Below, in pieces: positions 58,098 to 62,866 of a DNA stretch of 64,000 nt (positions within the stretch are counted from its first letter, which is position 1; each line of letters opens with the position of its first letter). Source of the stretch: Candidatus Marinacidobacterales bacterium. GTDB lineage: Bacteria > Acidobacteriota > Vicinamibacteria > Marinacidobacterales > SMYC01. A program made the translations under genes and the position numbers. The stretch lies in assembly GCA_965237955.1 (NCBI GenBank), contig OZ250169.1, positions 6,784,001-6,848,000 of the forward strand. Direction: 5' to 3'. The notes under the pieces were generated by a model. The model saw nothing but the letters and a program-made list of their open reading frames with translations. It was not told where the DNA came from and did not search any database.

Positions 58098-58916
58098 CTA
58101 TACATTCAGCGTCACCTCGCGCAGAAGCCGCATCGGGCCGAGTCGCTTCAGCTGCGACAGCTCATCTTCCGAGCGCACGAGAAGCGCACCGGCGAAGCCA
58201 AGTGCGTTGACGGAAATCGAGTTCCACGACTCGCGTGCTCGCGGCACCACGAGCATCCAATCGCGGGTAGCGAGCAGATTGTACGCACGCGGATTCCCGA
58301 GAGAAGCCAAAAGCCTCGAGTACCTCTCATGAATTTTCGGCGCGGCGTCGCCGGTGCCGAGGCAGTCGTCGATACGACAAACCGCGTGCGCGAACGGAAG
58401 GCCTCGCGAATCATCATCGAGCACCGCCTCGATCGGCGTTCGCTCCGAACCGTCGCCGAGCGGCACCGGCACCACTTGGAGATGTTTGTGCCGCTGGCTC
58501 GCCCCCGCGTTGGGACCGGCGTTATAGAACACGAGCGCGTCGGCCTCGGTGAGACAGCGCCACGCGACATCGAAGTCTTCGCGAGTGAGAAGCGACTCCT
58601 GTTCTTCGAACGCGCGCGTCACGAGAAGCACGTGCTGATCGACGACGCTGAATTTATTCAGGACCGCAAAGTGCGTCTCAGAAACGTCGGCGACGAAGAG
58701 GTCCTTTTCCGGCTCGGCGAACGCGTCGAATCCGTCCGGTTTCCGGATGCTGTCGAGACGCTTGCGCTCCAGGTTTTCGACGACACGAGTGAGAAAGCGG
58801 ACGCCGCCGTCTTCGATCACACGGCTCGTCGTCGAGATCGGCTGGAGCGATCCAGAGGAGAGCGCAGCAGCGGTAGTCTCGGCGACCGCGCGCCAGAACG
58901 CGCTATCGGATCGCAC
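58098..58916 (-). CDS. ATP adenylyltransferase / Ap4A phosphorylase-like (HIT/GalT branch)
   Basis: LNKFSVVDQH, FYNAGPNAGASQRHKHLQ (HxHxQ), SVNALGFAG. Confidence 0.88.
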   Translation of the reverse strand: MRSDSAFWRAVAETTAAALSSGSLQPISTTSRVIEDGGVRFLTRVVENLERKRLDSIRKPDGFDAFAEPEKDLFVADVSETHFAVLNKFSVVDQHVLLVTRAFEEQESLLTREDFDVAWRCLTEADALVFYNAGPNAGASQRHKHLQVVPVPLGDGSERTPIEAVLDDDSRGLPFAHAVCRIDDCLGTGDAAPKIHERYSRLLASLGNPRAYNLLATRDWMLVVPRARESWNSISVNALGFAGALLVRSEDELSQLKRLGPMRLLREVTLNV

Positions 58917-60675
58917 GATGCTGATAGAGCACGCCGTCGGAAAATCCCTGCCCGCGGTAGTAGTTCCGGGTGCCGACAGAGGAGATTACCGCCATCTTGG
59001 AAAAACCCTTTTCACGCGCAAGCTCGGCCGCATGGTCGATGAGACGGCGCCCGAGCCCGGAATGTTGAGCTTTCCGCTCGTCGCGCTCGCCGATCGTCAC
59101 AGCCGCACCGTAGACGTGGACTTCGCGGATCAGCGCGCTGGCTTCGAGCTCGGCGATATAGGCAGGCTCTTCGGGAAGACACAGGCGCAGGAAGCCGGCG
59201 AGACGATCTGAGTCGGTAACGAACTGCAAGAAGGCTTCGTCACCGACCGAAGTGCGGTAGCGCTCGACGACGAGGCGAAGAGTCTCGGGCGAAGCGGTAT
59301 CGCCGCGAATTTCGCGGGCGCGAATATCGCGGGAGCCGATGCCACGCTTCGCCATCTCCGACTCTGCGATCGCACGAAAATTCGTCACCCGGCTTCCGGC
59401 GAGGATATCATCACCGGGGATGTCGCGAATGACCCGCGAAAGGCGGCAGTAGACGGGCGTTTCGGTCATGCAATCGATCAGGATCTTCAAGAGCTCGTCT
59501 TCGGAGTACGGCCGATAGCGCCCGGCTTCGTAATGGGTCATCAACTCGGCGCTCTCGATAAGGCTGCATGGGTACAGCTTGAGCTCGTCCGGACGGAAGT
59601 CTTGATCCGAGAACAGGCGCGCAAAGTCGACCACGTCCTCGGCCGGAGTCGAGCCGTAGAGGTTCACCATCCAATGCGCCTGGACCTTGAAGCCCGCCTG
59701 ACGCAGCAACTTGGTCGCTCGGCGGGACGCTGCGACGTCGTGACCGCGCTGGTTGAGCTCCAGCACTTCGTCGGAAAGACTTTGGTAGCCGATCTGGATC
59801 TTGGTGGCGCCGAGGCGTCGGAGCCGTGTGACTTCTTCTTCGGTGATGTAGTCGGGACGGGTCTCTAGCGAGAGCCCCACGCACCGCGCTCCCGCGGTCT
59901 CGTTCTCGCGCTGTACCACGGCGAGCTCGTCCCAGGTCGCGGACTCCGCCGCTTCTACCGCACCCGACGCGTCGGCTCGCTCGGTGAAATCTGACACGAT
60001 GCGGTTGTACGGGTTGCCACCCTTACGACCGTCGACCTCTTCACCGATCGCTTCGAAATCGATCCGTAAACATGAACTCGAACGCGAGCTGGGAGGCGCA
60101 TCGCGCACACCGGCACCGAAATCGTTCAACGCAACGAACGTACGCTTCAGGAACCAAATTTGATACGGCTCGGTGTAGAACGACCACGTGCCTCCGAGAA
60201 CAATGAGCTCTATTTTGTCCACGGGATGCCCGATGCGGTAGAGCGCGCTCAACCGTGCAAGCGTCTGCTCGTACGGATCGAACTGATGCATACCGGCGCG
60301 TTGGGCCCCCGGTTCCCGCGACAAGTAGCTCTTCGGCATCTTCACGTCGTTCGGGCAGAAGATGCACTTTCCCGGGCACGGGAACGGCTTGGTGAGAATG
60401 GTCACCGGCGTGACGCCGCTGAGCGAGCGCACCGGCTTCATGCGGAGCTTTTCGATGATCGCCTCGCGCTCGGAAGGCCAGTCGTAGAGCTTTGCGAGAT
60501 AGCGGTAGCCCGCGATGAGCTCGCTCCGCGAGAAGATGGACGAGCCGTTTTTGGGATGGCGGCGTAGGATGCGGTCGAGCGAGCGTACCTTTATTTCAGG
60601 AAGGGATTCCACCTCGTCGAGAATGGCGAGCAGGTCGCGCTCGTGGTCCTCGGGTGCAAACTCGTAGTTGCGCAT
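58903..60675 (-). CDS. elp3: Elp3-like tRNA U34 carboxymethyltransferase (radical SAM + GNAT)
   Basis: KPVRSLSGVTPV, CPGKCIFCP, MPKSY..EP, ETRPD, LKLYP, RVIRDIP, IREVHVYG, QHSGLG, ISSVGTRNYY. Confidence 0.93.
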   Translation of the reverse strand: MRNYEFAPEDHERDLLAILDEVESLPEIKVRSLDRILRRHPKNGSSIFSRSELIAGYRYLAKLYDWPSEREAIIEKLRMKPVRSLSGVTPVTILTKPFPCPGKCIFCPNDVKMPKSYLSREPGAQRAGMHQFDPYEQTLARLSALYRIGHPVDKIELIVLGGTWSFYTEPYQIWFLKRTFVALNDFGAGVRDAPPSSRSSSCLRIDFEAIGEEVDGRKGGNPYNRIVSDFTERADASGAVEAAESATWDELAVVQRENETAGARCVGLSLETRPDYITEEEVTRLRRLGATKIQIGYQSLSDEVLELNQRGHDVAASRRATKLLRQAGFKVQAHWMVNLYGSTPAEDVVDFARLFSDQDFRPDELKLYPCSLIESAELMTHYEAGRYRPYSEDELLKILIDCMTETPVYCRLSRVIRDIPGDDILAGSRVTNFRAIAESEMAKRGIGSRDIRAREIRGDTASPETLRLVVERYRTSVGDEAFLQFVTDSDRLAGFLRLCLPEEPAYIAELEASALIREVHVYGAAVTIGERDERKAQHSGLGRRLIDHAAELAREKGFSKMAVISSVGTRNYYRGQGFSDGVLYQHRAIR

Positions 60676-60706
60676 CGTTCGTGAGAAGAATAGCGTAAAC
60701 GCGACC

Positions 60707-61495
60707 TTGAACGAAGTCACGATCCGAAGCCTCAACGGCATCAACCGACGCTTTTACGACGAGCGCGCCGACGAGTTCAATCAAACGCGCGAGCGAGCGT
60801 GGCGCGGCTGGAACGATCTCTTCGACCGCTACGGCTCCCGGGTTCCGCGCTCACCCAGGGTCCTCGACGTCGGCTGCGGCAACGGCCGCTTCGCACGGTT
60901 CTTGCGTCAACGGCTTGCCGAGCCGTTCACCTACTTCGGCATCGACGCCAGCAAGCTTGGGCTGGAGCATGCCGAAAAACGACTCGTCGACATTCCCAAC
61001 GTACATCTGGTCGAGCACGATTTCATCGTCGAGCCAGAACCGCTTCCGTCTTCGCTGGCTTCCGACGAGTTCGATCTCATCGTGCTGTTCGGGGTCGTCC
61101 ATCATATTCCGGGACGGGAACATCGCGCCCGCCTTCTGACACGCCTCGCTCGGCATCTAGCTCCGGGCGGCATGTTCGCCTACACCGTGTGGCGCTTCGA
61201 TCGCTTCGAGCGTTTCACCCGCAAGCTCGTGCCGTGGGACGATTTCCCTGTGGAAGGGAGCGAGCTCGAGCCCGGGGATCACATCATGACGTGGGGTGAT
61301 GCCGGACCGGCTTACCGGTACTGCCACGCGATGACCGATGAAGAGGCCGAGACCCTCGAGCGCACCTTACCGCTCGAGGCGTTGGCAAGCTTTTCCGGGG
61401 ACGACGACTTGAACCGATATTACGTTCTAATGAAAAAAACGCCACTCGACGCTCGCAAGCCCACACAGGGTGAACGTGGTTCCCGACTCGAGTAG
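60707..61495 (+). CDS. class I SAM methyltransferase, Trm9/ALKBH8-like
   Basis: FYDERADEFNQTRERAW, VLDVGCGNGR, GVVHHIP, YTVW, W...RYCH. Confidence 0.8.
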   Translation: MNEVTIRSLNGINRRFYDERADEFNQTRERAWRGWNDLFDRYGSRVPRSPRVLDVGCGNGRFARFLRQRLAEPFTYFGIDASKLGLEHAEKRLVDIPNVHLVEHDFIVEPEPLPSSLASDEFDLIVLFGVVHHIPGREHRARLLTRLARHLAPGGMFAYTVWRFDRFERFTRKLVPWDDFPVEGSELEPGDHIMTWGDAGPAYRYCHAMTDEEAETLERTLPLEALASFSGDDDLNRYYVLMKKTPLDARKPTQGERGSRLE

Positions 61496-62300
61496 CTGGG
61501 CACGCTCCTCCCCTGAGTGACCCCACACACCGTTCTTGCTGGCAGTATCGATCGCATAGAGACTTCCCGCCATCTCGACGATCAAAACGTGGACCCTCGA
61601 GATGTGAGGGTTCGTAAGCAGGACATCGCCATCGCATCGGTCCGAGCGTCCGAGAAGGATTCCGGAGCGCATCGCCCGTCTGCCGACTGGCATCGTCCCA
61701 ACGCCTTCTTCAGACGCGATCACGAGCTCACCGAGCGGTTCCTCATCGTCGGATAGGAGACTCTCTTCGAGCGTGGCCGGATGCGGAAGCGCCATCGTGC
61801 CGGCGTCTCGGCGGCTAAGCTATGCCCATATCGCCTCCGGCTCATCAGGCCAGCCGCGATCGCCTCGTGAGCCGGGAGCGAACAACAGAGAGTACCGGCC
61901 GCATCGAATGAAAAACGGCCCATCGGCTTCGCACGCGCGCAGTTGGCTACCGCGCTCGTCAGTGAAACCGGACGGCGTCCGTAAATCGACGACGCGAAAC
62001 GAGAACGGCTTCTTGGGGGACGACGGCGGCACGATCACGGCGAGATGCCGGAGGGACAAAGAGGGATCATCGCCGAGAAAAATCTCCGCCTTTTCGTGCC
62101 GCCCCACGATCGCGGTGTTGACTCGATTCTCGTGAGCGCGCAGGTAGCCCTTGGCCTGGACGCCGTGCTCGTCGAGAGCGACGACCGCGAGCCCAGGCTG
62201 CTTCCGGTCGTGCAATCAGTCTCGGATCGGGTCGTAGTACTCGAAAAACAGCTCGCCGGCCGCATGGCGCGGCGGCGGCGGTACGAATGCCGGCAGACAT
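61427..62300 (-). pseudogene. FHA-domain protein with stop/frameshifts
   Basis: IVGRH..DPSLSLRH and LLGRSDRCD..ISRVH..DTASKNG in different frames; 5' end approximate. Confidence 0.7.
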
Positions 62301-62477: not shown

Positions 62478-62706
62478 GGGCCGGCGACAAAATAAGTTCC
62501 CGTTTTCAAGACGGTCGGATGGTGTAGTTCCATTTGGGTAGAGTCTGGTCCTTTGTAACGGAAAGCGCCTGCATCCGCTCGTCAGTGATTTTGACGCCCT
62601 TCGGATAACGACGCCGGATAAGGTGTGCGCGTACTCGCAAACCGGAAGAGGTGGTGGTCGTGCGGATGTATTTGAGGATGGTTTCGTAGCTGTCGAGATG
62701 CCTGCC
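62478..62706 (-). mobile_element. 3' end of an ISAzo13-family element, interrupted by IS21
   Basis: SYETILKYIRTTTTSSGLRVRA...YPKGVKI...WNYTIRP* followed by a short terminal sequence. Confidence 0.8.
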
Positions 62707-62711
62707 TGCGT

Positions 62712-62866
62712 ATTCCGGGGCATCGTGAACGCAGATTCCAGCCGAAGGTGAACATCCATTCCAAAGCATCGTGAACACGGATTCCGGGGATCGTGAACAT
62801 CGATTCCGGGGAAGGTGAACACGGATTCCAGGCAACGTGAACGCCGGTTCCGGCATCGCGAACGCT
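62712..62866 (+). repeat. IS21 subterminal transposase-binding repeats (7 x ~22 bp)
   Basis: ATTCC-N4/5-AWSGTGAAC-N4 tandem units. Confidence 0.88.

Follow-up and report, generated by a model that had tools for sequence, protein, structure and literature searches.

A head-to-head elp3 and Trm9-like methyltransferase gene pair: a probable mcm5U34 pathway in a Marinacidobacterales genome

The locus described here raises the question of how a bacterium may modify the wobble uridine (U34) of its transfer RNAs (tRNAs) when the usual enzymes are missing. In most bacteria, the decoding task of U34 is carried out by 5-methylaminomethyluridine (mnm5U) and 5-carboxymethylaminomethyluridine (cmnm5U), which are made via MnmE-MnmG, together with MnmC or MnmL/MnmM. 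The stretch that we have analysed (the window) comprises 64,000 nucleotides from a Candidatus Marinacidobacterales bacterium (GenBank assembly GCA_965237955.1, contig OZ250169.1, positions 6,784,001 to 6,848,000) and contains two divergent genes: elp3, and a gene for a class I S-adenosylmethionine (SAM) methyltransferase that resembles Trm9 and ALKBH8. An earlier note on this DNA had proposed that the two genes form a eukaryote-type module for wobble modification; this core proposal is supported by our computational analyses of the sequences and of their genomic neighbourhood. Since the usual U34 enzymes are missing and relatives of Elp3 and Trm9 lie back to back instead, the bacterium likely makes 5-methoxycarbonylmethyluridine (mcm5U): Elp3 would probably make 5-carboxymethyluridine (cm5U) at position 34, its partner would methylate it to mcm5U, and MnmA would add sulfur. 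Such an mcm5U pathway is known from yeast, animals and some archaea, and the bacterial Elp3-Trm9-like pair is well supported by comparisons of sequences and genomes. These comparisons establish the identity of both proteins, show that their catalytic residues are kept and that the two genes are linked in several phyla, and find neither gene in the searched genomes that have MnmG.

The genome of the window is a single contig of 8.13 Mb (60% G+C, completeness 97.96%, contamination 6.2%); judged by the methyltransferase gene, its closest relatives are Acidobacteriota, Ca. Marinacidobacterales among them. The gene elp3 is located at 58903..60675 on the minus strand, with its ATG seen as CAT at 60673-60675, while the methyltransferase gene is located at 60707..61495 on the plus strand and starts with TTG at 60707-60709; the spacer from start codon to start codon (60676..60706) measures 31 bp, and the head-to-head arrangement that had been claimed is confirmed in the sequence. 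The N-termini of relatives agree with both starts: methyltransferase orthologues start at the same column with ATG or GTG, and the N-terminus of Elp3 reads MRNYEF here and MKYEF in orthologues. A single contig of the public run X6 covers the full 2.8-kb stretch with 19 differences, but this match is not independent, because the run may be the source sample. The divergent pair is not due to chance, because the same arrangement is seen in 51 of the 80 loci that are compared below.

The 590-residue product of elp3, which is present in a single copy in the genome, scores 484.5 bits on TIGR01211, above the curated cut-off of 350, and matches the Pfam families Radical_SAM, Radical_SAM_C and GNAT, i.e. 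a radical-SAM domain with three cluster cysteines followed by a KAT domain. Its matches to archaeal, Dehalococcoides and eukaryotic Elp3 structures have E-values from 1e-75 to 1e-99, with that of M. infernus (6iaz) at 1e-99. The CxxxCxxC codons (C100, C104 and C107, [4Fe-4S]-binding) are located at 60355..60378 on the minus strand; in the 47 paired Elp3 proteins these cysteines and the motif KSY are invariant (47/47), and ETRPD is almost invariant. From the TIGR01211, Pfam and structural matches, the protein is predicted to be a stand-alone radical-SAM/KAT tRNA U34 carboxymethyltransferase that forms cm5U34. It has the same Radical SAM and KAT layout as the stand-alone Elp3 of D. mccartyi (5l7j) and M. 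infernus (6iaz), with E-values of 1e-96 to 1e-99, but it differs from both in its length of 590 residues, its extended N-terminus and an insertion near residues 186-250. Bacterial Elp3 has been treated as a stand-alone enzyme (PMC13315578, PMC6367351), and the available portion of PMC6367351 names no downstream methyltransferase for the D. mccartyi enzyme, yet a close orthologue of that enzyme adjoins a Trm9-like gene head-to-head, as is shown below.

The identity of the second protein, of 262 amino acids, is less immediate: its Pfam matches are to generic class I families, no NCBIfam model reaches its cut-off, and with 1,764 representatives matching at an E-value of 1e-30 or lower the family is a large one, some of its members bearing the automatic label TRM9 in JGI records. 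When a diverse family profile of 80 rows (profile A2) is compared with the Protein Data Bank (PDB), the best match is the Trm9 of Y. lipolytica (5cm2; E 4.3e-15, 58.8 bits, next match 49.4 bits, positions 26-227), which is the sole top-five match aligned through the C-terminal lid; among longer proteins, seven bacterial fusions come first, followed mostly by ALKBH8. In the reverse direction, a profile from eight ALKBH8 domains places the window open reading frame (ORF) at the top of the 75,253 six-frame ORFs of the genome (62.5 versus 50.9 bits), making the match between the family and Trm9/ALKBH8 a reciprocal best profile match, and hhalign aligns A2 with ALKBH8 end-to-end over 219 columns (E 3e-27). 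The structural model (pLDDT 93.6) shows a class I SAM fold that has an N-terminal helix (residues 3-26) and a two-stranded lid (strands 191-196 and 202-207) after beta-5 and before helix E, together with a helix at 211-220; a two-stranded lid of Trm9 is described in PMC4678810. The motifs that the earlier note had listed are found in the order it gave (Y17..A21..F24..T27R28...W32, DVGCGNG at 54-60, VVHH at 130-133, YTVW at 159-162, W196 and RYCH at 204-207).

In yeast Trm9, eight residues are critical for the zymocin response, the alanine mutants losing function (PMC4678810, Table 2). Seven of the eight are kept in the window protein, namely R28, D80, H133, W162, W196, R204 and N236, which correspond to yeast R29, D72, H116, W145, W168, R241 and N271, respectively, the last equivalence depending on the hhalign alignment; each of the seven is kept in 73-80 of 80 relatives. 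The 19 other methyltransferases of the genome, taken as a control, keep at most two of the eight, partly through not aligning across the lid. Together with the reciprocal profile search, these active-site residues uphold the assignment of the protein as Trm9-like, and the protein is predicted to be a cm5U34 carboxyl O-methyltransferase. With yeast Trm9-Trm112 (5cm2, PMC4678810) and animal ALKBH8-TRMT112 it has in common the fold, the lid, seven of the eight residues and the reciprocal profile match; it differs in being bacterial, in its identity of ~24-30%, in a cysteine at the position of Y243, in the lack of the AlkB and RRM domains of ALKBH8 and in being encoded beside elp3.

We have compared 80 loci, the best 80 of at least 473 methyltransferase loci, which by record title come from Acidobacteriota, Myxococcota, Chloroflexota, Patescibacteria, Spirochaetota, Verrucomicrobiota and Atopobiaceae. 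The gene elp3 is located within 6 kb of the methyltransferase gene in 52 of them (51 divergent, one co-oriented); in about 37 loci the two genes stand immediately head-to-head, no more than 250 bp apart, and the remaining pairs are separated by 0.3-2.5 kb. Among the 28 loci without a nearby elp3, eight have less than 1.1 kb of upstream sequence and 20 have the full 6 kb. The 80 neighbourhoods contain no further gene that is shared between phyla: the protein families that come next in frequency are found in at most 10 loci, and SpoU is nearby in one. For 47 pairs, methyltransferase distances correlate with Elp3 distances (Mantel rho 0.61; 0 of 2000 permutations), but this is not evidence of coupling, because shared ancestry alone yields such a correlation.

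At the level of whole genomes, MnmE has been searched for in the window's own genome, and all tallies across genomes refer to MnmG. Neither MnmE nor MnmG is found over its cut-off in the window genome, while 9 of 14 control genomes do have them; the closest matches, far under the cut-off, are a 443-residue GTPase with two G domains and a 444-residue protein, which we read as Der-like and TrmFO-like, respectively. MnmA is present, CmoB, MnmL and SelU are not found over their cut-offs, and the U34 tRNAs comprise those for Lys, Glu, Gln, Arg(UCU), Gly and Leu(UAA). A CmoM-type methyltransferase, which would make the methyl ester of uridine 5-oxyacetic acid (mcmo5U), has been rejected as a candidate, as the CmoB needed to supply uridine 5-oxyacetic acid (cmo5U) is not found (best TIGR00452 match 38 bits, cut-off 275).

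Among the genomes of 50 loci picked by hand from the 80 (23 without and 27 with a nearby elp3; completeness not given), 47 carry Elp3 and none carries MnmG. In an even sample of 251 genomes of the window's own phylum, each at least 90% complete, the methyltransferase and Elp3 occur in the identical nine genomes, from six genera, and MnmG occurs in 212, none of them a pair carrier (G073, among those with MnmG, is an unpublished entry, but the result would be the same without it). MnmG is missing from all 55 genomes of the window's own order, where 23 carry both genes, three carry a single gene (fragmented assemblies) and 29 carry neither; these 29 include every genome of one family (f84, G309-G336), in which MnmG, Elp3 and the methyltransferase are missing in 28/28. 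A sample of 141 Chloroflexota genomes contains Elp3 in 30, MnmG in 66, both in none and neither in 45, and the 17 genomes with a strong A2 match all carry Elp3. In the genome sets searched, MnmG never occurs together with Elp3 or with this methyltransferase, and both the co-occurrence of the methyltransferase with elp3 and the check for mnmE and mnmG, which had been named as tests of the proposal, come out in its favour; no P value is given, because related genomes are not independent. Compared with the MnmE-MnmG route, the pair would act on the same nucleotide and carbon, with the same predicted decoding role and with MnmA for 2-thiolation here too, but through unrelated enzymes and chemistry.

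The 13 Chloroflexota genomes that carry Elp3 without a strong A2 match proved to hold a second Trm9-like clade. These genomes are small (1.4-2.4 Mb), their Elp3 is short (~460 residues), and a methyltransferase of ~220 residues is encoded head-to-head with elp3 in 12 of the 13 and on another contig in the thirteenth (loci L158, L160-L170 in genomes G362, G442, G406, G375, G387, G415, G476, G468, G492, G451, G484 and G424, and locus L145). One Elp3 of this group aligns with the crystallised D. mccartyi enzyme (5l7j) without gaps at 977 bits. The profile of the second clade matches 5cm2 first in the PDB, narrowly (78.1 versus 73.9 bits), while a single sequence places it 8th; all eight critical positions are kept in 12-13 of the 13 proteins, including the tyrosine that corresponds to yeast Y243 (13/13). 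The two clades share ~25% identity, and all 30 Chloroflexota genomes with Elp3 carry a Trm9-like gene, 17 of the window clade and 13 of the second. The strongest indication that the two enzymes are functionally coupled is this pairing of each of two diverged Trm9-like clades with a separate type of Elp3.

In the mechanism that we propose, Elp3 would add a carboxymethyl group to U34, using acetyl-CoA and a SAM-derived radical, as inferred from yeast and Haloferax. The methyltransferase could then orient the cm5U carboxylate with R28 and H133, stack the base on W162 and read the pyrimidine with N236, and would pass the SAM methyl group to the carboxyl by SN2, the type of methyl transfer proposed for Trm9 (PMC4678810), to give mcm5U34. 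MnmA would add the 2-thio group on tRNA-Lys(UUU), tRNA-Glu(UUC) and tRNA-Gln(UUG), giving mcm5s2U, and the modified U34 would decode those split-box codons that end in A or G. The closest prokaryotic parallels are archaeal: in Haloferax, mcm5U has been shown by liquid chromatography-tandem mass spectrometry and requires Trm9 and Trm112 (PMC6144793), and in Sulfolobus solfataricus the elp3 and trm9 genes are clustered (PMC5372719), a precedent for the clustering seen here. Haloferax volcanii also has a stand-alone Elp3 followed by Trm9, but its system depends on Trm112, and the likeness to both archaea is drawn from descriptions rather than from archaeal Trm9 sequences.

Several results weigh against the proposal that the pair makes mcm5U. 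Trm9 is not among the 60 best PDB matches of the single methyltransferase sequence, which are to small-molecule methyltransferases; 5cm2 is ranked 21st by a narrower profile (A1) and 27th in Foldseek (TMt 0.70, with a 5cm2 chain truncated to 184 residues); unrelated methyltransferases reach hhalign scores of 98-132, with a probability of 98-99%, compared with 124-131 for single ALKBH8 domains, and because of these high scores we give more weight to the residues than to hhalign; and in the quick tree the basal branching order is unsettled, with distant outgroups scattered on long branches. The position of yeast Y243 is occupied by C206, and by cysteine in 72 of 80 relatives; the Y243A mutant of yeast Trm9 has ~10% of its activity left (PMC4678810, Table 2). 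None of Elp3, the methyltransferase and MnmG occurs in 30/251 genomes of the phylum, 29/55 of the order and 45/141 of Chloroflexota; MnmG loss does not require the pair. Lastly, cm5U is undetected in Haloferax after deletion of Trm9 (PMC6144793), so that cm5U can take other routes. Other comparisons are neutral: the top rows of VIA-align tie at Z 19-20 and are generic class I methyltransferases, with 5cm2 outside the best 50 rows, and the ESM Atlas search returned unnamed bacterial methyltransferase clusters alone. The comparison with Trm9 that the earlier note had called for has therefore held at the level of profiles, through the match to Trm9/ALKBH8, while fold search and tree have remained neutral.

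The alternative that survives best, though we consider it unlikely, is that the pair acts on U34 with an end product other than mcm5U, either because the ester is transient, e.g. on the way to 5-carbamoylmethyluridine (ncm5U), or because the change from tyrosine to cysteine alters the reaction. The presence of C206 and its frequency among relatives fit this explanation, as does the fact that how ncm5U arises has not been worked out for yeast either (PMC6367351, PMC6144793). It is opposed by the absence of a third recurring gene from the 80 neighbourhoods and by the tyrosine of the second clade. It is less probable still, and quite improbable in our view, that the two proteins are coupled while the methyltransferase acts on something other than tRNA U34, such as a different RNA, the Elp3 protein or a small carboxylate tied to Elp3 turnover: a dyad of arginine and histidine or tyrosine is shared by several carboxyl methyltransferases (PMC4678810), and the best structural neighbours are assorted methyltransferases, but the proposed readers of the base and of the neighbouring nucleotide (equivalents of H115, W145, W168 and N271) are kept too, and the fact that the pair and MnmG exclude each other indicates that both have the same nucleotide as their target. 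A bystander enzyme that methylates a small molecule and only happens to accompany elp3 would agree with the generic Pfam matches, the lack of an NCBIfam match over cut-off and the single-sequence PDB matches, but is strongly disfavoured by the reciprocal match to Trm9/ALKBH8, the residue set missing from the 19 control methyltransferases, the head-to-head arrangement of each of the two deeply diverged clades with a separate type of Elp3, and the joint absence of both genes from family f84, where 0/28 genomes carry either.

If the mcm5U pathway is real, its methyltransferase rather likely works without Trm112, as the earlier note had suggested, although here the evidence is divided. At the Trm112-contact positions V59 and F78 of the Y. 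lipolytica protein, both bacterial clades have polar residues (R51 and T75 in the window), where ALKBH8 is mostly hydrophobic; positions V102 and F116 are partly hydrophobic in the window's clade. Matches to PF03966, a short model that may miss members, are found in 40 of 58 carrier genomes, many of them weak, and in none of the seven carrier genomes under 2 Mb. On the other side, the window genome has a stand-alone gene for an 84-residue Trm112/YcaR-like protein (3381725-3381979, minus strand; L005), unlinked and 3.46 Mb away from the pair, with a helical insert and a single full CP motif, and similar forms occur in 16 other carrier genomes. The polar positions and the small genomes thus speak for independence and the unlinked gene against it, and the window protein is classed as Trm9-like, not as a Trm9-Trm112 holoenzyme. 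A Trm112-like zinc knuckle is also found fused to a class I methyltransferase near 2298000-2299030 on the minus strand (L004:577-1629), downstream of a membrane protein gene.

Taken more broadly, the data would fit a second widespread bacterial route to the C5 group of U34, and we regard the chances of this wider picture as about even: a cassette of Elp3 and a Trm112-free Trm9 would make mcm5U, and mcm5s2U with MnmA, would exist in two or more ancient clades, pass from phylum to phylum as a head-to-head unit and settle only where MnmE/MnmG are gone, and would supply the downstream step that the crystallised Dehalococcoides Elp3 has lacked so far. Our literature search found no report of a bacterial Trm9 or of bacterial mcm5U, although a supplement or a survey in a subscription journal could list homologues; no significantly similar bacterial genes have been detected for the Trm112-partner methyltransferases, according to PMC5372719, and PMC7694415 gives mcm5U as a nucleoside of eukaryotes and archaea and assigns to bacteria, from the xm5U group, cmnm5U, mnm5U and 5-aminomethyluridine (nm5U) only. 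A real pathway of this kind would predict the in vivo product of bacterial Elp3, explain wobble modification in part of the bacteria without MnmE/MnmG (Patescibacteria, Anaerolineae, some Acidobacteriota and Myxococcota), offer in a single-chain Trm9 a simpler model for the chemistry of ALKBH8, and bear on the origin of the eukaryotic pathway. Cultured hosts include Lancefieldella rimae ATCC 49626 (L072), which carries the pair, and carriers of the Dehalococcoides-type Elp3.

The pair is found head-to-head in Atopobiaceae (Lancefieldella and Atopobium; L072, L075, L078, L079, L087), whose methyltransferases group with Patescibacteria sequences in the quick tree, and a transfer between the two groups is possible. 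In one 73%-complete assembly (G302:C15, near 360800-363070) both genes look broken, elp3 by one internal stop and the methyltransferase gene by a frameshift, which could be sequencing error or joint decay of the pair.

The earlier note had further proposed overlapping, probably leaderless promoters in the spacer. A weak candidate for a bidirectional promoter is located at 60687..60696, where two -10-like hexamers, TAGCGT on the plus strand and TATTCT on the minus strand, overlap by a shared TA, an exact overlap that we take to be typical of such promoters. The hexamers end 10 and 11 nt ahead of the two starts, which would leave leaders of ~4-5 nt, and with this geometry transcription would begin at two points separated by 23 bp, a distance that is reported to be frequent among bidirectional promoters (PMC12825309). 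No site in the spacer passed a sigma-70 scan, and the overlapping pattern, which has only four fixed bases, occurs in none of the 10 spacers that could be read in relatives. Across the 80 loci, TANNNT ends 4-11 nt before the methyltransferase start in 25 (9.8 expected by shuffling) and exactly 6 nt before it in 12, an excess from which some relatives look leaderless. The proposal thus fits some relatives, while the hexamers of the window are not conserved in close relatives and end farther from the starts, and its promoters look short-leadered at best.

Next to the pair, a gene for an Ap4A phosphorylase/ATP adenylyltransferase (58098-58916, minus strand) overlaps the elp3 stop by 14 nt and is probably co-transcribed with elp3; it lies beside elp3 in just 1 of 80 other loci. 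On the other side, an FHA-domain gene (61427-62215, minus strand) is split into two ORFs in the window and is one ORF in a relative (L009), followed by what we take, from its motifs, to be a transposase-like remnant near 62500-62860 and then an IS21-type transposase from 62927.

Among 100 longer matches of the methyltransferase, no fusion to Elp3 is found, which is weak evidence. Trm9-like domains are fused to a WecB/TagA glycosyltransferase in a third, more distant group (P0269-P0274, one source being Ca. Peregrinibacteria), to a SpoU methylase (P0268) and, in L034:5977-7698, to a domain that is presumably TrmB-like, judging by its motifs.

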